IMG/VR virus record: IMGVR_UViG_2579778842_000017
Coordinates: 5,703-69,702 of that record
From: a virus
Taxonomy: Duplodnaviria > Heunggongvirae > Uroviricota > Caudoviricetes
DNA length: 64,000 nt
Strand: one strand, 5' to 3'
Positions 1 through 58,649 of the stretch are shown here, piece by piece; position 1 is the stretch's first letter; the number at the start of each line of letters is the position of its first letter. The position numbers were made by a program, and so were the translations under genes. The notes under the pieces are model-generated. The model was not told the origin of the DNA. It saw only the letters and a list, made by a program, of their open reading frames with translations, and did no database searches.

Positions 1-147
1 TCCGAGATCGTCATGATTTTGCAAGCCGCGATTGATGAAGATAGGTCGCCAAAGTCAGTTGAGTCATTTGCTCAGCAAGAAGCTGACAAATTCAAAGAGG
101 CGCTGCTGGAGACGCTGAAAACCATGTATGGTAAGGATGATAAATAA
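1..147 (+). CDS. 3' end of unknown gene (partial), translationally coupled to downstream gene
   Basis: In-frame ORF running off the window start, ends ...TMYGKDDK; stop TAA at 145-147 overlaps ATG at 147 (TAATG). Confidence 0.35.
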   Translation, partial: SEIVMILQAAIDEDRSPKSVESFAQQEADKFKEALLETLKTMYGKDDK

Positions 148-1163: not shown

Positions 1164-1613
1164 TCAGTTAATTAACGTTTTGAAAAAACCTTTCATAGAA
1201 TCAAGTGTGATTTCTTGGCTAACCGCACCCTCAATGTAAGCATCTTTCCATGGCTGCTCTTCGTGAGTCATATTGCGCAGTTTCCAGGCAGAAAACTGAC
1301 CATAAACTTTATACACCTCATCCAGCAATTCAATTTCATCTTCACTGAATTTTTTAGCGTCAAAGTTTTCTGGCGCAGGTAAAGCTCCGTTACCACAGTC
1401 CCTATATTTACGATACAATTCAGGAACTACTGGCCCATGCATCCAGGCTTCAATTTTCTCATTAAATAGCGGCTTACCCAGAAGAACCAGAGAAAACCCT
1501 TGGGCATAATACGTCAACTTCTGAATTTTTAGGTTAGAGATAATGTCGCCACTTTCTTCATCGCAATGCGCCAAGAAGTAGTCGGCGACATCAAAACAAG
1601 TGAGCATAAACAT
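1164..1613 (-). CDS. Panacea (DUF4065) domain protein, putative antitoxin
   Basis: 149 aa; motifs KIQKLTYYAQGF and EAWMHGPVVPELY that I recall as typical of DUF4065/PanA. Confidence 0.6.
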   Translation of the reverse strand: MFMLTCFDVADYFLAHCDEESGDIISNLKIQKLTYYAQGFSLVLLGKPLFNEKIEAWMHGPVVPELYRKYRDCGNGALPAPENFDAKKFSEDEIELLDEVYKVYGQFSAWKLRNMTHEEQPWKDAYIEGAVSQEITLDSMKGFFKTLIN

Positions 1614-1770
1614 ACCTCCATCTTGATAGCCGCAGCTATGTATACAACTGTGTCAAGTTGCATTTAATACCATAACAAAGCTGTCATCAATCCTTCAGAG
1701 GCTAACTTACAACCACTTTATCGACACGTTTAAATCATTACATTTCACATTTACTGCATTTTCGCCGAAG

Positions 1771-1785
1771 TTACCTATAAGGTAA
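1771..1785. promoter_or_regulatory. operator-like palindrome TTACC-TATAA-GGTAA (site 1 of 5)
   Basis: Exact TTACC-N5-GGTAA in the divergent intergenic region upstream of the Panacea operon; followed by ATGTCAC half-site. Confidence 0.4.
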
Positions 1786-1981
1786 TGTCACATTTCCTGC
1801 AAGTTTCATGCAATGTTGAAAAGTGAGCTATTCACTTTTCTATGACACCAAACACCAAAAATAGCACTTTTTGCTAAATCATTCGCCCAAGTTGTGGATG
1901 GTTTGTCGTTGACACGTTTTCACACACCACTCCACCAATAAAGTATCATCTGGTATCCTGCTCAAAACTAAGGAGGTTGGT

Positions 1982-2187: not shown

Positions 2188-4053
2188 TCACTGCTGTGTT
2201 GCCTCAGTGGCAAGCAGCGGTCTGATGGCATTTGCAGCGTTACTTAATGCTCTTTCATAGGCTGGCGTTCCTGCTTTGGTGTTTGCCAGACGTAAGAGCG
2301 CATTCCTGGCCATAGGGCTTTCATAAACCCTCGACATAAGGCCAATCCCTGTTTCCCCAGCCAATAGCGCGCCTCCGGTTTTTAGGTTACCAATAACCCT
2401 TACCAAAGGCGCGAGTGTCATGCCAGTCTTCGTCACAACATTAGCCTCAGATGCTCTTTTGGTAGCATCGAGAATAGATAACATCCCCTCTATCTCTTTT
2501 CCGTTCTTCCCACCAAATACAGTTTTAAACACCTGACCATTTGCTTGTTTTTGCAGCTTGCCAAGCTCGGTCATCATTTTCTGAGGGCTGTCACCTACCT
2601 TGTCAGCTATTTTGCTGATATATGCCGCCCTTAGCATGTCTTTACCTTTTTGATCGAGTTTCCCGTACAATCGAGCTATATCTGACCCATATTGTCCATA
2701 CACAATGGTATTTACAGCCTCGGGAGTTAAATCTCCTTTGTTTAGAACGTTTTTAAGGCGCGTTTGAGTTGCATGTGTTGCCATTTTTGCATAATCAGCT
2801 TTTCCCGCTCTCCATGCTGAAGCATCTTTTGGGCTAAGTCCTTTCGCTATAGATTTACTAAGGCTATTGGTTAGCGAGTTATAGACCCTGTCGACCATTG
2901 TTTGCGACATTGATGGCAGAACTGTACGATCGCCTTTTACGTCAATGCGGAACTGAGTTCTCAGCTTATCAAGTAACTCAAAGGCATCATCTCCATTTGT
3001 TATCTCCTGAATGGCATTCTTATAATCATTAAGCGCAGAAATGGTCTGGGTGTCAGAAACACCTTTAAGTTTCCCAAGTTCGTTTACTGCTCCGTCGATA
3101 GCTCTTATGGCGCCACTTGTATCAACTGGCTTTCCAACCATTCTTCCTGACAGGCTGTTTAGTTTTGACTTGGCTAACGATTTTTCCCTTGCAACGCCTG
3201 ACTTTAGACTATCAACGACTACAGATGGATCGTAGTCGCCGTATTTTTCGGTGAAGCGATTAACAAGCTTGGTTCTGGCATCCTGCTGTGCGGCTCTCAT
3301 TGGTCCAGTACCAGCTATGACTCCTTCTGAGTAACCCTGCAGTTGATTGCCAAGTTTTGTTTTTGGAGGAACTACATCCGATGTCATAACTGGTACATCT
3401 GCCGCAGCGGCACGCTTGAGCAATTGCTGATCTGCTGGTGATATTTCGCCACGAACAGCAGTAATTCCACGCCCTATTCCCTTTGCTGCTGCGGAAAGAA
3501 CCCCCTGAGCGGCAAGGTTAACTCCTGCATTTTTAGCTGCATTTTGTGCGAAATCGCCTTTCTGATTTGCGGCCTCTGCCAGTGATCCAATAGCCATGCT
3601 TCCTGCCGTTCCAACTCCTGGAACTAAATACCCGCCAATTGTTTCTCCAGCTTGCGCATAAGGGTCTGTTGGTCGATCTACTGGACGATAGACATCGTCC
3701 AAAACCTTGGGGCCACCAAGCCCCTGGCTGATTGCATTAATCAGGCTTGCGCCACCCTGCAATACGTCAAATGGTATGTTTACCAGACCACGACCAGCCT
3801 GCTCTGCAATTTGCCCTGCACTTTGACCACCAGTGAGCCAATCGCCAGCTTGTTGCATCAATGATGGTTCTTCTTTCTGCTGCTGAGGCGGAGGGTATGC
3901 TGCATAAAACTGATCTCTTGCTTCAGCCCATTTGTCACCAGCCTTAGGGGCAACAACCTCATCAAAATATTGCGCTTGAGCCTGTGCTTTCTGTTCTTCA
4001 GTTAACGCCTGATACTGTGGAGAGGCGATAACATCTTTCCATGCTTTAGCCAT
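2188..4053 (-). CDS. ejection (injection) protein, P22 gp16-like
   Basis: 621 aa, last gene of a P22-order late operon (3-2-1-8-5-4-10-26-14-7-20-16); size matches gp16 (~609 aa). Confidence 0.6.
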   Translation of the reverse strand: MAKAWKDVIASPQYQALTEEQKAQAQAQYFDEVVAPKAGDKWAEARDQFYAAYPPPQQQKEEPSLMQQAGDWLTGGQSAGQIAEQAGRGLVNIPFDVLQGGASLINAISQGLGGPKVLDDVYRPVDRPTDPYAQAGETIGGYLVPGVGTAGSMAIGSLAEAANQKGDFAQNAAKNAGVNLAAQGVLSAAAKGIGRGITAVRGEISPADQQLLKRAAAADVPVMTSDVVPPKTKLGNQLQGYSEGVIAGTGPMRAAQQDARTKLVNRFTEKYGDYDPSVVVDSLKSGVAREKSLAKSKLNSLSGRMVGKPVDTSGAIRAIDGAVNELGKLKGVSDTQTISALNDYKNAIQEITNGDDAFELLDKLRTQFRIDVKGDRTVLPSMSQTMVDRVYNSLTNSLSKSIAKGLSPKDASAWRAGKADYAKMATHATQTRLKNVLNKGDLTPEAVNTIVYGQYGSDIARLYGKLDQKGKDMLRAAYISKIADKVGDSPQKMMTELGKLQKQANGQVFKTVFGGKNGKEIEGMLSILDATKRASEANVVTKTGMTLAPLVRVIGNLKTGGALLAGETGIGLMSRVYESPMARNALLRLANTKAGTPAYERALSNAANAIRPLLATEATQQ

Positions 4054-5447
4054 TAATCACCCCATAGTGAAGAAAAGTTACTGCTGGCTGCTGGCTGTGA
4101 TACCTGTGTAGGTTGAGATTGCTGCCGCTGAGATTTACCAACATTAACGTTATATTGTTGGTTGTAATTGTTGGTGTATTCCTGAATCTCACGAATCGAC
4201 TGCTGCATAGCCTCCGGGCTTGAATAGTCAACCTGCGGCATCCCCTGAAAATACATCTTCGCTTCTGCAACGGTGTTAATACCACTGGCACCCATATCCC
4301 TTGCTGCCGCCACACCCTGATTCTGCATTCTGCCCTGAATACGTTGTGCTGAGTTATATAACTGGCGCTGCTCTTTTCCTGTTAATCGGCTGCGAACATC
4401 AGCACCAATTGCTGGATTACCTGCACCGCCTGTCATTCCTGTCATGAAATCGAGAGCAGAAGCGTCTGCATTTGCGATCGCGTCGATATCCTTCTTCATG
4501 GCATAGTTTTGTGCTGATGCAGACGATGTTGCAGGCGCTGCGATTGAACTGGCAGGAACGCGAACCATATTCCCCTCGTTGTCGATGCCTTCGTAGAACG
4601 CATTAGCCCCAGCGCCGTGAAGCTTCCCACCTACCGTTACAGTTCTGCCATCTGATAACTGAACTGTACGCTTATCATTCCCAGCGATTCCTCTTGTTGA
4701 CGCTCGCTGCATTGCCAAATCCTGACCTCGTCGCGCAGTAGAAGCAGATAAGTCCTGACCGCGCATCGTGATGTTCTGACCTCGTGCTGTTAGCGCCTCT
4801 CCAGCCTGATTGCTGCGGATTGTCTCTGCCAGCCTGCCTCGGTCAATTTCACGACCAGCCATCTTGTCCTGAACATTGAAGTAATCAATCGGACCAAGAG
4901 CAGCCATTCCAAGGTGATCAACAAACTCTGTGAAACCTTGTGGATTTTGCTGATACATTTTCGCCACATCCAGAGGGTCTACTCCGGCACGAGTAAGCTC
5001 AGATGAGTTGTTCTGCAACCATGACATCATGGCTTCTGGAGATGAAGCTGCCAGTCTGGCACTTGCTGCCAGTGTGCCGACAGTGGAACGCTGGTCTTCA
5101 TCGACAAATTTCATGCCGTTTCTTACAGCGTCAAACTGCTCAGGATACTGTGATGCCAGTTTTCGCATTGCATCGCGGTCACCAGATGTATATGCATCAG
5201 CATAAGCCTGCTGAAACTCTTGCTGTCGCTTCTGCTGATCCATCTGCTTATACATATCCATGACAGATGAAATGCCCTGCAAAGCCTGCAAGCCAACGTT
5301 ATTACGTCCTGAACGCTCCATCTCGTTATTCTGTCGAATGTATGCAAGCGTGGCGTCTGCATCACTTGCTCTTGGAGCGTTGGAGTTCATGCCGCCTAAC
5401 CCGGCAAGAAGCGCGCCTGAATTACCAGCCTGTTGCCATGTAGCCAA
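4053..5447 (-). CDS. ejection protein, P22 gp20-like
   Basis: 464 aa, position and size match gp20 (~471 aa). Confidence 0.6.
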
Positions 5448-19146: not shown

Positions 19147-19770
19147 CTAACGTGTGACCGCATTCAAAATGTTGTCTGCGATTGACTCTTCTTTGTGGCA
19201 TTGCACCACCAGAGCGTCATACAGCGGCTTAACAGTGCGTGACCAGGTGGGTTGGGTAAGATTTGGGATTAGCATCGTCACAGCGCGATATGCGGCGCTT
19301 GCTGGCATCCTTGAATAGCCGACACCTTTGCATCTTCCGCATTCTTTCTCAACAACTCTCCCCCACTGCTCTGTTTTTGCTATATCAACCGCACGGCCTG
19401 TACCGTGACAATCTCTGCATCTTGCGCCAGGCGTCGCGGCACTACGGCAATAATCCGCATAAGCGAATGTTGCGAGCACTTGCAGTACCTTTGCCTTAGT
19501 ATTTCCTTCGAGCTTTGCCACACCACGGTATTTCCCCGATACCTTGTGTGCAAATTGCATCAGATAGTTGATAGCCTTTTGTTTGTCGTTCTGGCTGAGT
19601 TCGTGCTTACCACAGAATGCAGCCATTCCGAATCCGGCTTGTGATTGCGCCATCCCCATAGCAGCCATCACATCAGTACCGGAAAGAGAGTCAGAAGCCG
19701 TGGCCCGTGGTGAGTCACTCATCATCGGGCTTTTTGGCGAATGAAATTTAGCCACGCTTTCGAGTCTCAT
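19147..19770 (-). CDS. Q: late gene antiterminator Q
   Basis: 207 aa; recalled as near-identical to lambda Q. Confidence 0.9.
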
Positions 19771-33835: not shown

Positions 33836-34651
33836 GTGAGCCAGATTGATTATCAGGCACTGCGTGCTAAGGCAGAAAAAGCAACGTGTGGCGAGTGGTC
33901 GCTCGAATATGGAGAGGGCCGATTTGATGGTGATGATGCGCTAATTCATCGCGAGGCTGCTGGATATATTCCCATTTGCAGAATTGAAGGAGCGCATCCA
34001 GAAAGCGGTTTCGATGAAGATTTCCAAATGGAACAGCAGGCCAATGCTGAATTCATCGCCGCAGCCAATCCGGCTACCGTCTTGGCGCTGCTGGATGAGC
34101 TGGAAAGAAAACAGCAATACATCAAACGCCGTGACCAGGAGAACGAGGATATTGCTCTTACGGTTGGGAAGCTGAGAGTTGAGCTTGAGGAAGTAAAACA
34201 ACACGCTGAAGAATTATCCGAAACCAAGGCTGTTCGTAACCAATGGCGACCAGATATTTGCCCAATAACCGGACGTGCATTTTTCATGTGGATTGAGCAT
34301 CCAACATTGGGGAATGTGCCGACATATGGTGGCCCATTAGATAGTTACACCATTCCAACAAAGGACGGTGACGGTGAGTTTTCATGTGAGCGTTACGATC
34401 ATGATTTTGGCGGTTGGGTAGAAAGCGAATGTCTTGGGTTATATCTGATTGATGATAGAGAACAATGCAGGGTCTACGAACTGGAGGAACACGTTAAGGA
34501 ACTGGATGCTCGGGAAATATCGCTCCCGGAACGTAGCAGCATGCTTCATCGAACAGATTTTCACGATGATTACCAAACGGTAATGGCATACAAAGTTTCT
34601 GAAGTCATCGCTGCAATCCGCGCCGCAGGCATTCGCATCAAAGGAGAGTGA
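33836..34651 (+). CDS. Ea22-like (ead) protein
   Basis: 271 aa; family typical of the end of lambdoid PL operons. Confidence 0.65.
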   Translation: MSQIDYQALRAKAEKATCGEWSLEYGEGRFDGDDALIHREAAGYIPICRIEGAHPESGFDEDFQMEQQANAEFIAAANPATVLALLDELERKQQYIKRRDQENEDIALTVGKLRVELEEVKQHAEELSETKAVRNQWRPDICPITGRAFFMWIEHPTLGNVPTYGGPLDSYTIPTKDGDGEFSCERYDHDFGGWVESECLGLYLIDDREQCRVYELEEHVKELDAREISLPERSSMLHRTDFHDDYQTVMAYKVSEVIAAIRAAGIRIKGE

Positions 34652-35171: not shown

Positions 35172-35710
35172 CCACTATTACCAATAAGAAACAGTATCCC
35201 AGCGAGCAATATCTTAATGAGCTGATCACCAACATAGAGTTTGCTGCAAGGGCACCAGTTGAAGTCGTGAGAGCGATGGCAGCAGAGCTACAGAAGCGGC
35301 GCGAAGCTGATAGTGCAGAACCTGCAAGTAATCATGAAGAGTTGCCGCTTGATTATCTCCAAGGTCAAAAAGATGGTCTTGAATGGGCTGCGCAGCTTGC
35401 AGAAGCAAATCACCCACAAACTGGCGACTGGCTTTACGATGACCCGCTGGAGCTGGCTAAAGCTATCAGAAAAGGTCCTGACATGCCCGAGTTCGCTGGA
35501 CCCCATCCGGTAACTCCGGATGGTTGGATAAGCTGTAGTGAGCGAATGCCCCCTCAAGATGATTGGATTTTAATTTATTCAAAGCACGGCGAGTATATGG
35601 CAGGACAGGTACAAGGGGAATACGTGGAGTTGAGCGACGGCACTTTATCGTGGTTAGGGAACGCCTTGTACTGGATGCCGCTGCCAGAACCGCCGCAGGA
35701 GGCGAAATGA
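35168..35710 (+). CDS. DUF551-type phage protein
   Basis: 180 aa; C-terminal W/P-rich module ending WMPLPEPP. Confidence 0.55.
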   Translation: MTTITNKKQYPSEQYLNELITNIEFAARAPVEVVRAMAAELQKRREADSAEPASNHEELPLDYLQGQKDGLEWAAQLAEANHPQTGDWLYDDPLELAKAIRKGPDMPEFAGPHPVTPDGWISCSERMPPQDDWILIYSKHGEYMAGQVQGEYVELSDGTLSWLGNALYWMPLPEPPQEAK

Positions 35711-36060
35711 TGGACTATTCACAGTTAAGTGATTTTGAAATTAACAGAATGGTAGGAGACATAATTTTTAAAGGCCTTTGGGCATGTAAACCGGAAACAT
35801 CAGGGAATAACACCAACAAATGGTATTACGGAAATGCTGATACAACTTTTGAGCCATTAAACCCTTTACCTGACTACTGCAATAATCCATCGGATGCATG
35901 GCCTATTATTGTTGATAATAAAATCAGTCTAACCTGCCACCAATCTCGCGGTGAGTGGTCAGCTGTTTTTAATGCCGAGAACATTTGCTTTCATGCGAAT
36001 AATCCACTCCGAGCCGCCATGATTGTATTTCTCATGATGCAGGAAAATCAGAATGGCTAA
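35707..36060 (+). CDS. DUF2591/NinX-like protein (copy B)
   Basis: Start refined to MMDYSQLSDFEIN...; first 12 aa and last LRAAMIVFLMMQ identical to copy A, middle divergent. Confidence 0.55.
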   Translation: MMDYSQLSDFEINRMVGDIIFKGLWACKPETSGNNTNKWYYGNADTTFEPLNPLPDYCNNPSDAWPIIVDNKISLTCHQSRGEWSAVFNAENICFHANNPLRAAMIVFLMMQENQNG

Positions 36061-36391
36061 ATCAGCAGCAGAGCGCAAAGCCGCTCAGAGAGCCAGACAA
36101 GCTGCATCTGGTGTGCGTAAGCTGGAGATTGTGCTTGATGCTCAGGAAATTGAAATGCTGGAGCGTAACTGTGCCACGCGTCGCCCCGGGCGTGCGCCTT
36201 ACGAATTTGGTGAGTATATAGCGTTACTGATCCGCCAGGATGATGCACGCGTGCACGGGCGTATAAAATCGATCAGCAGAAAACGTTGCGGTAAGTGCGG
36301 CGAGAGAGTTCCTGTGAATTCATGCCCGTGTAATGGTGACTCGCAATGCTGGGTGACTAAAGGCTGGCATGAAACGAAATTAATAGTGTGA
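36053..36391 (+). CDS. hypothetical protein (Cys-rich C-terminus)
   Basis: 112 aa; the stop codon lies inside the GTGACATGTCAC palindrome. Confidence 0.45.
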   Translation: MAKSAAERKAAQRARQAASGVRKLEIVLDAQEIEMLERNCATRRPGRAPYEFGEYIALLIRQDDARVHGRIKSISRKRCGKCGERVPVNSCPCNGDSQCWVTKGWHETKLIV

Positions 36392-36399
36392 CATGTCAC
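36388..36399. promoter_or_regulatory. perfect 12-bp palindrome GTGACATGTCAC (copy 1)
   Basis: Exact palindrome; identical copy at 56151..56162. Confidence 0.35.
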
Positions 36400-36440
36400 G
36401 AGTAGATTATGCATGATGAATTTGATGGGTTTTGAATACT

Positions 36441-36466
36441 GCCGCCAACTATGGCGGCTTTATTTT
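36441..36466 (+). terminator. intrinsic terminator between early-left operon and terS-B
   Basis: GCCGCC-AACTAT-GGCGGC hairpin followed by TTTATTTT. Confidence 0.55.
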
Positions 36467-36473
36467 GCATGGT

Positions 36474-36502
36474 ACTATTACCACAACGGTAACTATTACC
36501 AC
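36474..36502 (+). repeat. 11-bp direct repeat ACTATTACCAC x2 upstream of terS-B
   Basis: Copies at 36474 and 36492; second embedded in GGTAA-CTA-TTACC. Confidence 0.35.
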
Positions 36503-36509
36503 GGTGGTT

Positions 36510-37106
36510 ATGATGCCTGCTGAACCTAAAACCTATAAACGCAAATCAACGCAATTTAAGCCACTAACAGCAATGCAGGAGGCTTATTGCCAGTCATACA
36601 TCAAAACGCCTGAAAACCAGACTCAGGCAGCGATTAACGCAGGATTCTCCCCAAATACAGCGGCAGTTAAAGCCAGTGTCATGATGCGCGATGAACGCAT
36701 TCAAAAACGGATTGCCGAGCTGATGGAGGAGCGCAACAAACGAATGCGCGTCAGTGCTGATTACGTTCTCATGCGCCTGGTGGAGATCGACCAGATGGAC
36801 GTGATTGATATCCTCAACGACGATGGGAGTCTTAAGCCAATCCGCGAGTGGCCGAAAATCTGGCGCACTACGCTTAGTGGCTTTGATCTGTCATCGACCA
36901 TCATGAACATGAACGAGGATTCGATAGAGACAATCCTCAAAAAAATTAAATGGCCTGACAAGATGAAGAACCTCGAACTGATTGGTAAGCACGTCGACGT
37001 TAACGCGTTCAAAGAGCGCCTGGAGGTTTCCGGCACGGTCACCATCGCCGACCGCATGGCCGCCGCCCGGCGCCGCGTCATAGAGCAGGCTGGTGGTGAA
37101 GAATGA
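36510..37106 (+). CDS. terminase small subunit (module B)
   Basis: Start refined to MMPAEPK... downstream of the terminator (track ORF from 36432); directly precedes terminase large subunit. Confidence 0.65.
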   Translation: MMPAEPKTYKRKSTQFKPLTAMQEAYCQSYIKTPENQTQAAINAGFSPNTAAVKASVMMRDERIQKRIAELMEERNKRMRVSADYVLMRLVEIDQMDVIDILNDDGSLKPIREWPKIWRTTLSGFDLSSTIMNMNEDSIETILKKIKWPDKMKNLELIGKHVDVNAFKERLEVSGTVTIADRMAAARRRVIEQAGGEE

Positions 37107-38578
37107 CAGCCGCAGCCATGTCGCCGGAAGAGCAACTCGTCGAGGATATCGCCTCGTTCACGTATGACCCGCTGGGCTATGCGCTGTATGCGTTTCCGTG
37201 GGGCGAGGAAGGCACAGAGCTGGCGCACGCCACCGGTCCGCGTAAGTGGCAGGCAGACGCATTCCGCGAGATACGCGATCACCTGCAGAACCCGGCGACG
37301 CGTCACCAGCCGTTGATGCTGGCCCGCGCATCCGGCCACGGCATCGGCAAGTCAGCTTTCATCTCAATGCTGATTAACTGGGGCATGTCCACTTGCGAGG
37401 ATTGTAAGGTCGTGGTGACCGCCAACACCGACAACCAGCTACGAACGAAGACCTGGCCGGAAATTATCAAGTGGTCGAACCTTGCTATCACGAAAGACTG
37501 GTTTACCTGTACCGCTACCGCGATGTACAGCAATGACCCTGGGCACGACAAGCGGTGGCGAGCTGACGCAATCCCCTGGTCTGAGCACAACACTGAGGCA
37601 TTCGCCGGATTACACAATGAGCGCAAACGCATCATCGTGGTATTCGATGAAGCGTCGAACATTGCGGATCTGGTGTGGGAAGTTGCTGAGGGTGCGCTTA
37701 CGGACGAAGACACTGAGATTATCTGGGTGGCGTTCGGAAACCCGACACGTAACACCGGGCGTTTCCGCGAATGTTTCCGCAAATATAAACACCGCTGGAA
37801 AACTGCACAGATTGACAGCCGGACGGTGGAAGGTACTAACAAGCAGCAATTACAGAAATGGGTTGATGACTACGGGGAAGACAGCGACTTCGTTAAAGTC
37901 CGTGTGCGCGGCATATTTCCTGATGCATCTGAATTGCAGTTTATCCCTACCGGTCTTACTGACGAGGCAATGAAACGGGTGGTAACTGCTGCGCAGGTGG
38001 CACATGCTCCGGTGATAATCGGCGTTGACCCGGCATACTCCGGCGTTGATGACGCTGTGATATACCTGCGGCAGGGGCTGCACAGTAAGGTGCTGTGGAC
38101 TGGCAACAAGACCACTGACGATCTGATAATGGCGAAGCGTATCGCTGACTTTGAAGACCAGTACCAGGCTGACGCAGTGTTCATCGACTTCGGTTACGGA
38201 ACCGGTCTGAAATCAATCGGTGACGGATGGGGTCGTACATGGCAACTTGTTCCGTTCGGTGGCGCGTCTACTGACCCGCAGATGCTCAACAAGCGTGGGG
38301 AGATGTTCAACTCATGCAAGACATGGCTGAGGCTGGGCGGCATGCTGGATGACCAGGAAACAGCGGACGACCTGTCTGCGGCAGAGTACAAAGTTCGAGT
38401 GGACGGTAAAATCGTTATCGAACCGAAGGAAGATATCAAGGAGCGGCTTGGGCGTTCGCCTGGTAAAGGCGATGCGCTACTGCTGACGTTTGCTTTCCCG
38501 GTGTCAAAGCGCCTGCGACTTCCCGGGCAGCAGAACCAGCAAGGCAAGGCCATCACAGATTACGATCCCTATGCTTAA
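37103..38578 (+). CDS. terminase large subunit (module B)
   Basis: 491 aa; Walker A-like ASGHGIGKS, ATPase and nuclease halves. Confidence 0.85.
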   Translation: MTAAAMSPEEQLVEDIASFTYDPLGYALYAFPWGEEGTELAHATGPRKWQADAFREIRDHLQNPATRHQPLMLARASGHGIGKSAFISMLINWGMSTCEDCKVVVTANTDNQLRTKTWPEIIKWSNLAITKDWFTCTATAMYSNDPGHDKRWRADAIPWSEHNTEAFAGLHNERKRIIVVFDEASNIADLVWEVAEGALTDEDTEIIWVAFGNPTRNTGRFRECFRKYKHRWKTAQIDSRTVEGTNKQQLQKWVDDYGEDSDFVKVRVRGIFPDASELQFIPTGLTDEAMKRVVTAAQVAHAPVIIGVDPAYSGVDDAVIYLRQGLHSKVLWTGNKTTDDLIMAKRIADFEDQYQADAVFIDFGYGTGLKSIGDGWGRTWQLVPFGGASTDPQMLNKRGEMFNSCKTWLRLGGMLDDQETADDLSAAEYKVRVDGKIVIEPKEDIKERLGRSPGKGDALLLTFAFPVSKRLRLPGQQNQQGKAITDYDPYA

Positions 38579-38668
38579 TCCGCTTGAGGGGATAATGTCG
38601 TTGATATCCTCTGATGAGGATAAAACAAAGCCAGCTCATAGGCTGGCTGTTTGTGATATGTCACGGTG

Positions 38669-39040
38669 TTATTGCTCGCTTAACTTCTGCTTCAGCAAGT
38701 AACCTTCAAGCATCCAGATTTTGTTTACAGCATTCTGTCGGGCAATCTTCCGACCAATTTCTGCATCAAAGTTTTCCGGGCTTGCACAGGCGCTCTCTCC
38801 GGTGACGGTGAAGCCGTTGCGCAGCACCAGGACGCAGAACGTCAGCAGAGAAAGTGATTCGTGCGGCTGGTAGTTTACCTCTCCGCCAGTATGTTTCGCT
38901 TTTATGGCTACGCCAAAGGCACCATCTTCTGCTGTGAAATATGCCTCCTGAGCAATAATGCTCTCGATATGGTCTGGCGTAACGCGCGGCGCGGCTAAAC
39001 CTTTAGCCTGAATTTCAGATTCAATGTCTTTGTCACTCAT
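38669..39040 (-). CDS. hypothetical protein (antisense to module B late genes)
   Basis: 123 aa on the opposite strand between terL-B and the tRNA. Confidence 0.5.
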   Translation of the reverse strand: MSDKDIESEIQAKGLAAPRVTPDHIESIIAQEAYFTAEDGAFGVAIKAKHTGGEVNYQPHESLSLLTFCVLVLRNGFTVTGESACASPENFDAEIGRKIARQNAVNKIWMLEGYLLKQKLSEQ

Positions 39041-39241: not shown

Positions 39242-39318
39242 TGGCGTGGCATGCAGGATTCGAACCTGCGACCAACCGCTTAGAAGGCGGTTGCTCTGTC
39301 CGACTGAGCTAATGCCAC
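39242..39318 (-). tRNA. tRNA-Arg (anticodon UCU)
   Basis: 77-nt cloverleaf folded by hand: 7-bp acceptor stem, T-loop TTCGAAT, anticodon loop CTTCTAA, 3' CCA encoded; differs from E. coli argU in the acceptor stem. Confidence 0.9.
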
Positions 39319-39640
39319 AACGCTGAGAGCACTTAGCCTGTTAAGGCACCACACTTTGTCGCGGCTCCATAAATGCTCTCATCGTTGTACCCTCGTCTCT
39401 TCCGAGGCGTCACACCGAATCGCCGGGATGGTGAATCCCCGTGCGCGGCATAAAACCGCTCGACTTGCACATTCCGGCTACCTGGTTCGTTTGCCCGAGC
39501 AAGGGAGGGTGCCCCTTAAACGTATCCAGACCGCTATCGGCGCATGTGCCATACGCCGTACTGCTCAAAATAAAAGCTCACTCCACCTGTTCAATTTAAC
39601 GACAAGCCAGTCAGGTTAATAACAGGAATGCACTCTATGC

Positions 39641-39655
39641 TTACCTGAAAGGTAA
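39641..39655. promoter_or_regulatory. operator-like palindrome TTACC-TGAAA-GGTAA (site 2 of 5)
   Basis: Exact match about 90 nt upstream of the 39746 ORF and portal; flanks resemble site 5. Confidence 0.4.
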
Positions 39656-39745
39656 TAATTCGTGCGTTAAATGTCAACTACCTACGATAAATAAATCATA
39701 TGTGGTTAAATTGGTAATAATTTAATTGCGTACGGAGTCATTGAT

Positions 39746-56150: not shown

Positions 56151-56162
56151 GTGACATGTCAC
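56151..56162. promoter_or_regulatory. perfect 12-bp palindrome GTGACATGTCAC (copy 2)
   Basis: Starts 4 nt after the lipoprotein stop, directly followed by a terminator hairpin. Confidence 0.35.
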
Positions 56163-56186
56163 AGGCCGCTTTCGCGGCCTTGTTTT
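56163..56186. terminator. terminator between lipoprotein gene and convergent peptide gene
   Basis: GGCCGC-TTTC-GCGGCC hairpin followed by TTGTTTTT on the plus strand. Confidence 0.55.
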
Positions 56187-57070: not shown

Positions 57071-57082
57071 ATCGCGCCTCCT

Positions 57083-57097
57083 TTACCTTTAAGGTAA
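57083..57097. promoter_or_regulatory. operator-like palindrome TTACC-TTTAA-GGTAA (site 3 of 5) at a promoter
   Basis: Minus strand reads TTGCAG-17 nt-TACTAT then TTACCTTTAAGGTAA and AAGGAGG before the 55-aa ORF. Confidence 0.5.
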
Positions 57098-57170
57098 TAG
57101 TACGCTATTCACCCACAGTCTGCAATCTGTACAGAATTATTTAAAGGCACATCCCTGTGCCGCCGTTCTG

Positions 57171-58059: not shown

Positions 58060-58150
58060 TATGCGCCACTTAGTAACTCGGGACGCCAATCCCGGCACTG
58101 GATTTTTCCAGTGCCCGATTACTATGGCACAAGAGGAGTGCGATGTAAAT

Positions 58151-58165
58151 TTACCGCAAAGGTAA
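58151..58165. promoter_or_regulatory. operator-like palindrome TTACC-GCAAA-GGTAA (site 4 of 5)
   Basis: Nested inside inverted repeat GGAGTGC...GCACTCC (58135..58178); minus-strand context TTGCAA-18 nt-TATATT then TTACC. Confidence 0.4.
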
Positions 58166-58196
58166 ATATAAGCACTCCACTTGGTAATTGCAAACC

Positions 58197-58491: not shown

Positions 58492-58530
58492 TATCAAATA
58501 ATTTATTTGCTATCCAGCACGTTTTGCGAA

Positions 58531-58545
58531 TCACCTGAAAGGTAA
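58531..58545. promoter_or_regulatory. operator-like palindrome TCACC-TGAAA-GGTAA (site 5 of 5, one mismatch)
   Basis: About 105 nt upstream of the tail fibre gene; flanks resemble site 2. Confidence 0.35.
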
Positions 58546-58649
58546 TATCTGTTCGTATTTATGGGTTGTCTATCCATATATGGTTTTTCAGGTAATAGAA
58601 TAACCGGATATGCGGCGCAACGGGTGCTGCGACTATCTGGAGATTTAAC

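Follow-up and report, generated by a model that had tools for sequence, protein, structure and literature searches.

The window, by which is meant the whole stretch of 64,000 nucleotides analysed here, carries on its plus strand a terminase operon made up of terS (36513..37106; Terminase_2, Pfam E = 4.1e-30) and, as its second gene, terL (37103..38578). The end of this operon (38629..38664, plus strand) consists of a terminator at 38629..38648 and then a 12-bp palindrome, GTGATATGTCAC (38653..38664). The last gene before the junction with terS encodes a 112-aa homologue of epsilon15 gp49 and phiV10 p55 (36053..36391, plus strand). Its stop codon is overlapped by another, strandless copy of the palindrome, GTGACATGTCAC (36388..36399), which is the first of three in module B, the part of the window to which these genes belong. 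Between the stop of the 112-aa ORF and terS lie an intrinsic terminator and two direct repeats. The true start of terS is most likely the ATG at 36513, judging from its alignment with relatives, and the corresponding ribosome-binding site is GGTGG at 36503..36507. An alternative start at TTG 36432, which is the one given in the phiV10 RefSeq entry and would make the repeats coding, is unlikely because the relatives start at the aligned ATGCC and present indels of 1-2 nt between the two repeat units (O1 and O2, see below).

The terminator claimed by the original prediction is real. The hairpin GCCGCCA-ACTA-TGGCGGC at 36441..36458 has seven pairs, six of them G-C, and a 4-nt loop, and it is followed by TTTATTTTG; the plus-strand segment 36441..36467 thus combines the G+C-rich hairpin and the T tract that define intrinsic (Rho-independent) terminators, and it is annotated as a terminator in the phiV10 and epsilon15 records. 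Its predicted RNA fold has an energy of -13.8 kcal/mol (z = -4.0), and none of 200 shuffled sequences was equally stable. As a boundary, this element stands in the window but it is not universal: in BUCT554, Kp4865-1, BUCT711 and two genomic loci there is no terminator between the upstream ORF and the dyads described below, which are kept. These comparisons indicate that the terminator is a non-universal part of the junction, dispensable in relatives. An Rfam scan of 35500..37500 returned only rseX (E = 0.82), far under the gathering score, which was taken as noise.

The segment that separates the 112-aa gene from the terminator (36392..36440) is an insertion hot spot among relatives. In several of them, the site holds a gene behind a good promoter that is overlapped by a perfect LexA box, TACTGT-N8-ACAGTA. 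The window only has a mini-ORF of eight codons (MHDEFDGF*, 36409..36435, plus strand) that resembles the 3' end of the 85-aa cassette gene of the relatives, and 36392..36440 looks like the remnant of an inserted SOS-box cassette. The stop codon of the mini-ORF is located 6 nt 5' of the terminator stem. A provisional identification of the ORFs of these cassettes as "ant" was withdrawn, since the 85-aa product matched no PDB chain, the SPC32H Rep-Ant entry included, and the only match of a 109-aa cassette product was a non-significant one to UmuD at its N-terminus (E = 0.2).

The same segment bears on whether terS could head a Q-type late module, in which a constitutive promoter at 36388..36417 would produce a short transcript and the terminator would be passed by a modified polymerase. 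A promoter-like GTGACA-18-CATGAT does lie at that place, just 5' of the strong terminator. Nevertheless, the match scores 9/12 and is at chance level, with 3 sites of this kind in 5 kb where 6.3 would be expected. The "GTGACA" is, moreover, half of the 12-bp palindrome, further copies of which mark two other operon ends and accompany gp49-family genes in unrelated contexts; the segment resembles a cassette remnant, and the annotation of phiV10 and epsilon15 includes no Q-like gene. This explanation is hence hardly credible.

A composite contig

From 36392 rightward, the window corresponds to phiV10 from position 1 of its record (94% identity), and epsilon15 aligns from about 36467. The gene order, from terS and terL over portal through tail fibre and lysis, matches that of phiV10, and module B can on this comparison be identified as a phiV10-like late region. 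At its right end, the window matches E. coli UMNK88, beside yfgI/yfgH, with 100% identity. The native prophage of that strain, located at guaA, is arranged in the order int, early-left genes, Rep (WP_000836290), a Cro-like gene, replication genes, ea genes, the 112-aa gene and then terS. Left of about 34076, the window is made up of a P22-like phage (97% identity; relatives of IME10, HK620 and Sf6) that contributes a cI-like repressor gene (27210..27860), an N-like gene (28210..28509, upstream of the terminator and on the same strand) and a Q-like gene (19147..19770, minus strand). The last of these agrees with the claim that Q lies on the other strand and serves the other module.

Identity to UMNK88 begins abruptly at 34076, within an Ead/Ea22 gene; in the comparison with that genome, mismatches cluster at 34081..34312 and are followed by 3 kb without any. 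The identical hybrid 271-aa protein and its gene neighbourhood are found on a 277-kb contig of assembly GCA_000696835.1. The PL operon thus stands beside terS because two prophages are joined within their shared ea genes; the joint, at about 34076, may have arisen by recombination or in the assembly of the reads. The early-left operon that had been placed upstream of terS is accordingly correct for this contig, where it is the P22-like PL operon, but not for the phage lineage: in six complete Uetakevirus genomes, as in the native prophage of UMNK88, what comes before the junction is the early-right operon of the phage itself.

Tandem dyads upstream of terS

The two direct repeats that had been noticed before terS are exact copies of the 11-mer ACTATTACCAC, although the second is one base away from the position originally implied. 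They occur at 36474..36484 and 36492..36502 (plus strand), 18 bp apart, and nowhere else in the window as exact matches; allowing up to one mismatch, there are 4 matches in 64 kb for 0.49 expected, a count that no shuffled sequence reached. The repeats do not constitute a separate family. They supply the left arms of a tandem pair of 17-bp dyads of the form ATTACC-N5-GGTAAT, each repeat combining an arm with a -10-like sequence: (T)ACTAT with the left arm of the first dyad in copy 1, and AACTAT with that of the second in copy 2. The first dyad, O1 (ATTACCACAACGGTAAC, 36477..36493), has one mismatch to the full consensus and a perfect TTACC-N5-GGTAA core, and is located about 32 bp upstream of the terS start. 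The second, O2 (ATTACCACGGTGGTTAT, 36495..36511), also has one mismatch but is weaker, with a degenerate right arm; it spans the start codon region of terS and contains its ribosome-binding site. Neither dyad is assigned a strand.

The epsilon15 record (AY150271.2) has an orthologous site at 12..27, just 5' of terS, that its depositors annotated as "protein_bind: repressor". Six further annotated repressor sites in the same record share ATTACC-N5-GGTAAT, and three of them adjoin the repressor gene. Since O1 and O2 are identical in kind to the annotated site, they are the same element and belong to an already known kind of control region, and the sequence of the window at this place hardly differs from phiV10; the label of predicted repressor site derives from the depositors' annotation and from the distribution of the motif.

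This distribution was studied through an unbiased count of palindromes, in which all the 5-mer inverted repeats with spacers of 3-9 bp were ranked in six Uetakevirus genomes and in the halves of the window. TTACC-N5-GGTAA is the top palindrome in all six genomes, with 8-11 perfect copies in each, and again ranks first, with 4 copies, in the module-B part; it is not among the top-ranked palindromes of the P22-like part. At up to two mismatches, the dyad is found 12 times in the window, 15 times in phiV10 and 18 times in epsilon15, where 1.5, 1.2 and 1.1 occurrences, respectively, would be expected. The sites are non-coding in 14 of 14 cases in phiV10 and in 14 of 15 in epsilon15, while non-coding sequence makes up 6.7% of the genome (p ~1e-16). 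Besides PL and PR, they occupy the heads of the p42, p45, terS, portal, tail-fibre, lysis and int units, in many cases right after an annotated terminator, and clusters of them flank the cognate repressor gene in phiV10, epsilon15 and the native UMNK88 prophage. In the window, operator-type dyads without assigned strand are located at the head of the portal/structural operon (39640..39656), upstream of the tail-fibre gene (58530..58546) and at 57082..57098 and 58150..58166, and one with two mismatches precedes the lysis genes (60804..60820). The distance between paired dyads is 18 bp at terS and 62 bp at PL and p45 in both phiV10 and epsilon15.

At terS itself, a perfect O1 core is present 23-34 bp before the ATG in all six Uetakevirus genomes (at about -32 in four of them), and it is also found upstream of terS in Rahnella, Buttiauxella and Superficieibacter prophages. 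The alignment of 48 distinct sequences upstream of terS indicates that the arms of the dyads are conserved whereas the N5 spacer varies freely, which is the signature of a protein-binding dyad. The dyads also stay beside terS in relatives in which upstream genes have been inserted or the terminator has been lost. An operator at terS is however not universal in the wider lineage: the Proteus/Providencia sister group, used as a heteroimmune comparison for covariation, has a different immunity palindrome, and none recurs at its terS.

Several functions could be attributed to such a motif. One possibility is that the repeats are recognized by the small terminase as pac or cosB-like sites, in which case the packaging origin would be beside terS. 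Both the R sites of lambda cosB and the pacL of SPP1 are directly upstream of the small terminase gene, where the present repeats are also found, and both the phiV10 and the epsilon15 record begin no more than about 120 bp away. Yet, record start points differ between phages and therefore look arbitrary, and the dyad is present at 12-18 non-coding places in each genome, the immunity region and the lysis and integrase genes among them. Since the motif is genome-wide, this very improbable explanation was excluded.

Another possibility is that the dyads bind a positive late regulator, for which the candidates would be the Cro-like p41, the PerC- or AlpA-like early-left proteins and the 112-aa protein; in a variant of this explanation, a protein of the repressor family would act both ways and the operon would need activation. 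The -35 elements are poor at the terS, portal and tail-fibre units. In the tail-fibre and lysis units, where the -35 is weak, the dyad does not lie over the core promoter but some 30 bp upstream of it, a position that is typical of activators and suggests that the mode of action may differ between units. A second motif, CATATnTGGTTT, is also common to the spacers of five unit promoters. Nevertheless, the repressor gene is surrounded at PL and PR by clusters of this same dyad, and the dyads of terS extend over the spacer, -10 and start region, positions from which a bound protein would repress. Among the candidates, the 112-aa protein was rejected as an activator of terS, because its homologues in other prophages are encoded in nin regions before DUF1367-like or Q-like genes, or by xis/int, and its gene is therefore not specific to terS. 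Positive control through the dyads is altogether improbable.

The occurrence of the dyads in the immunity region rather suggests negative control. phiV10 p40 shows full-length homology to the SPC32H Rep (PDB 5D50, E = 4e-42), and the dyads would be operators of the type assigned to the immunity repressors of the SPC32H Rep/epsilon15 gp38/phiV10 p40 family. The SPC32H Rep is described as a tetramer when bound to its palindromic sites (PMC9638917), which fits the pairing of the dyads. O1 and O2 are on these grounds putative operators of such a Rep. The interval is thus probably the standard boundary between the early-right and terminase operons of a phiV10/epsilon15-type (Uetakevirus) prophage, in which the dyads hold terS-terL off by means of the phage's own repressor. 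In the lysogen, repressor bound to O1 and O2 would keep terS-terL silent, either by occluding a weak local promoter inside the dyads, by blocking the polymerases that escape the terminator, or both, and the terminator would insulate the terminase operon from upstream transcription. The inactivation of the repressor would then release terS-terL and the other dyad-headed operons together, with no need for a Q-type activator.

Transcription of terS-terL

Where transcription of terS would start was evaluated in the window and its relatives. No sigma-70 promoter passed a consensus scan between the terminator and terS. In the sister group, 61 of 64 loci of Proteus/Providencia type have a canonical TTGAnn-17-nATAAT promoter at the homologous position, with diverse upstream flanks. 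In the alignment, this sister-group promoter corresponds to TTGCAT (36465)-17-GGTAAC (36493) in the window, a candidate weak terS promoter (36465..36493, plus strand) that is homologous in position to the TTGAAK-17-CATAAT of the relatives. The place of the sister -10 reads GGTAAC, and the key A at its second base is missing. An alternative candidate would be ATGGCG (36451)-16-TACTAT (36473..36478), which adjoins O1. In both PL (TTGACA-17-AATTAT) and the p45 promoter (TTGATT-17-TTTAAT), the -10 abuts a dyad, and the TACTAT next to O1 and the AACTAT next to O2 have the same geometry.

Alternatively, terS could be promoterless and its transcription depend on polymerases that pass the 36441 terminator from the upstream operon, by read-through or attenuation; the dyads would then be mere roadblocks in the lysogen. 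The source would be the p45/early-right unit in the native phage and N-modified P22-like PL transcription in the composite contig, and translation of the mini-ORF, ending 6 nt before the hairpin, would weaken termination. In addition to the lack of a consensus promoter between the terminator and terS, this possibility is in line with the preservation of the xDEFDGF of the mini-ORF through synonymous changes in seven DNA variants from distant relatives, with the inserted 85-aa gene of other relatives, which likewise stops 5-6 nt before the same terminator, and with the several relatives that have no terminator between the upstream ORF and the dyads. N complexes of the lambda type read through intrinsic terminators, and the N-like gene of the window is upstream on the same strand. 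Yet, the hairpin is strong and has a good T tract, close E. coli relatives present non-synonymous and frameshift variants of the mini-ORF, the sister group keeps a canonical promoter at the homologous place, and no alternative hairpin or antiterminator structure, such as a leader-peptide attenuator would have, was found in the RNA fold near the terminator. Promoterless transcription of this kind is possible but somewhat unlikely. It overlaps with the repressor-operator explanation and only differs from it in the place where transcription starts; if the dyads are indeed operators, the choice between local initiation and read-through is roughly even.

In this context, the absence of an obvious activator that had been pointed out for module B is accurate as an observation, given that none is evident in the window, but it is no anomaly, since the dyads are common to the immunity region and control looks negative. 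The window does not encode homologues of module B's cognate Rep, Cro-like, PerC-like, AlpA-like or Int proteins, and no description of late regulation in phiV10/epsilon15-type phages was found in the accessible literature. What is unusual about the region is its composite context; as a control region it is ordinary and for the most part annotated already, and it is not an orphan late operon. The analysis explains the repeats and corrects the start of terS.

The 112-aa gene and its palindrome

The 112-aa protein has no sequence match in Pfam, NCBIfam or PDB, and a BFVD search gave no useful match. AF2 modelling, which reached a pLDDT of 55 with 14 close sequences and 89 with 60 sequences, predicts a ribbon-helix-helix-like fold followed by a C-terminal Cys-rich motif. 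The gene is accompanied by the exact 12-mer GTGACATGTCAC, or by a variant in its two central bases, in most of 60 diverse prophage loci that encode gp49-family proteins, including some from Xenorhabdus, Pantoea, Rahnella and Yersinia. The palindrome is usually at the stop codon or no more than 13 nt after it, even when this is outside the ORF and regardless of the downstream content. Reciprocally, 46 of 120 IMG/VR stretches with the 14-mer TGTGACATGTCACG encode a homologue, and the site is within 40 nt of the 3' end of the gene in 40 of these 46. Uetakeviruses have three copies of GTGACATGTCAC, each beside an intrinsic terminator that ends a rightward operon. In the window, the second copy has one mismatch and is directly 3' of the terL terminator, and the third (56151..56162) belongs to the end of the structural operon (56151..56186, plus strand), with an intrinsic terminator directly after it. 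The sequence of the palindrome was not found in the accessible literature and, as far as could be checked, its association with the gene is new.

One may speculate that the 112-aa protein binds GTGACATGTCAC and that both form an undescribed phage system acting at operon ends, although this is rather unlikely. In that case, the protein could modulate termination or read-through and thereby set the moment at which transcription reaches terS; another option would be a MatP-matS-like role, in which it insulates the three sites or bridges them. The comparison with the latter is limited: matS is a 13-bp site (GTGACRNYGTCAC) with three central nucleotides whereas GTGACATGTCAC has 12 bp and two central nucleotides, the structural similarity between MatP and the 112-aa protein is weak and their identity 14%, the Cys-rich tail is absent in MatP and the pairing of protein and site is putative here. 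The gene-plus-palindrome pair (36053..36399) is nonetheless a testable lead to an uncharacterised, putative DNA-binding family of Enterobacterales prophages, and it is the part of this region most worth following up.

Comparison with known systems

The closest parallels to the terS dyads are the predicted repressor sites of epsilon15 (AY150271.2) and the Rep/Ant switch of SPC32H, with which they share the 17-bp dyad, the position before terS and the repressor family. They differ in that the terS sites of the window have one mismatch each and the gene for the cognate repressor is absent from the 64 kb. The presence of a strong terminator immediately before the first late gene is reminiscent of the lambda Q/PR'-tR' arrangement; however, in module B there is neither a Q gene nor a credible upstream promoter or Q-binding element, and relatives can do without the terminator.

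Two other systems are similar in the use of the repressor site itself. The stoperators of mycobacteriophage L5 are repressor sites dispersed through the prophage that silence it globally, and here too a repressor-type site is repeated a dozen or more times in both early and late regions. Yet, stoperators are asymmetric, act in an orientation-dependent manner and are inside transcribed regions, whereas the present dyads are symmetric and located at operon heads, usually after a terminator. The likeness to the OL/OR operators of lambda consists of the tandem palindromic sites, the -10 that abuts or overlaps a site and the clusters on both sides of the repressor gene. In lambda, however, repressor action is confined to PL and PR and the late genes depend on antitermination by N and Q, whereas here the late, lysis and integrase units are headed by the dyad as well. 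With a single dyad heading practically all operons, Uetakeviruses would follow a repressor-centred logic that is simpler than the N/Q cascade of lambda.

The junction upstream of terS

The terS gene, which heads the phiV10/epsilon15-type late region (module B), starts at TTG 36432 according to the phiV10 RefSeq record, a position that would put the intrinsic terminator (36441..36467) and both upstream operator-type dyads (ATTACC-N5-GGTAAT, assigned to the phage's own repressor) within the gene; the relatives indicate ATG 36513 instead. A mini-ORF encoding MHDEFDGF* (36409..36435) ends 6 nt 5' of the terminator stem. Its xDEFDGF portion is preserved via synonymous changes across seven DNA variants, and non-synonymous and frameshift variants are present in close E. 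coli relatives. The mini-ORF may be a remnant or, alternatively, an aid to read-through.

In several relatives, the equivalent of 36400..36440 is occupied by a gene of 85 or 109 aa (loci L082, at 4336..4420, L083, L090 and L148, the latter being BUCT554), the longer version of which carries a UmuD'-like GFPSPA at its N-terminus. Ahead of this gene is a promoter of the form TTGACx-17, and a perfect LexA box (TACTGT-N8-ACAGTA) overlaps that promoter. A different further insert occupies the same junction point in at least 13 IMG/VR loci.

The sister group made up of Proteus/Providencia-type relatives (loci L271-L334) has a different immunity palindrome, approximately ATAAACA-N-TGTTTAT. A canonical promoter (TTGAAK-17-CATAAT) is conserved immediately 5' of terS in these loci, and the palindrome does not lie over it.

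Dyad spacing and a second shared motif

In phiV10 (31952/32014 and 35069/35131) and epsilon15 (32554/32616 and 35906/35968) alike, PL and the p45 unit each have a pair of dyads exactly 62 bp apart, a spacing that suggests looping by a tetrameric repressor. A second common motif, CATATnTGGTTT (roughly AACCA-N4-TGGTT), is found 5-40 nt 3' of dyads, with copies at 39697..39708, 58575..58586 and 60847..60862 in the window and at 3308, 20921, 24739, 33135 and 35116 in phiV10. It falls within the -35/spacer region of five promoters (portal, tail-fibre, lysis, p42 and p45) and has no clear copy at terS; it may be the site of another regulator.

In module B, the terminase operon and the portal operon have a tRNA-Arg gene (anticodon TCT) between them, at 39242..39318 on the minus strand. 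The convergent minus-strand gene that follows terL (38669..39040) bears the NCBI product name 'Gp49 family protein' (PF13876, N4 gp49 / Sf6 gene 66) and is easily confused by name with the distinct epsilon15 gp49 homologue at 36053..36391.

The prophage joint and an isolated dyad

The P22-like prophage on the left meets the phiV10-like prophage at about 34076, within an Ead/Ea22 gene (ORF 33836..34651). This joint is absent from every complete E. coli genome searched. The same arrangement was found on contig JNBX01000102.1 of assembly GCA_000696835.1, and the joint arose either by recombination or in assembly. The P22-like part contains a single operator-type dyad with a perfect core, GTTACCTATAAGGTAAT (1770..1786), which lies 5' of a SocA/Panacea-domain gene on the minus strand (1164..1613). 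Its presence could be due to chance or reflect cross-talk between both prophages. In P22, the region corresponding to that of this dyad is where immI sits.
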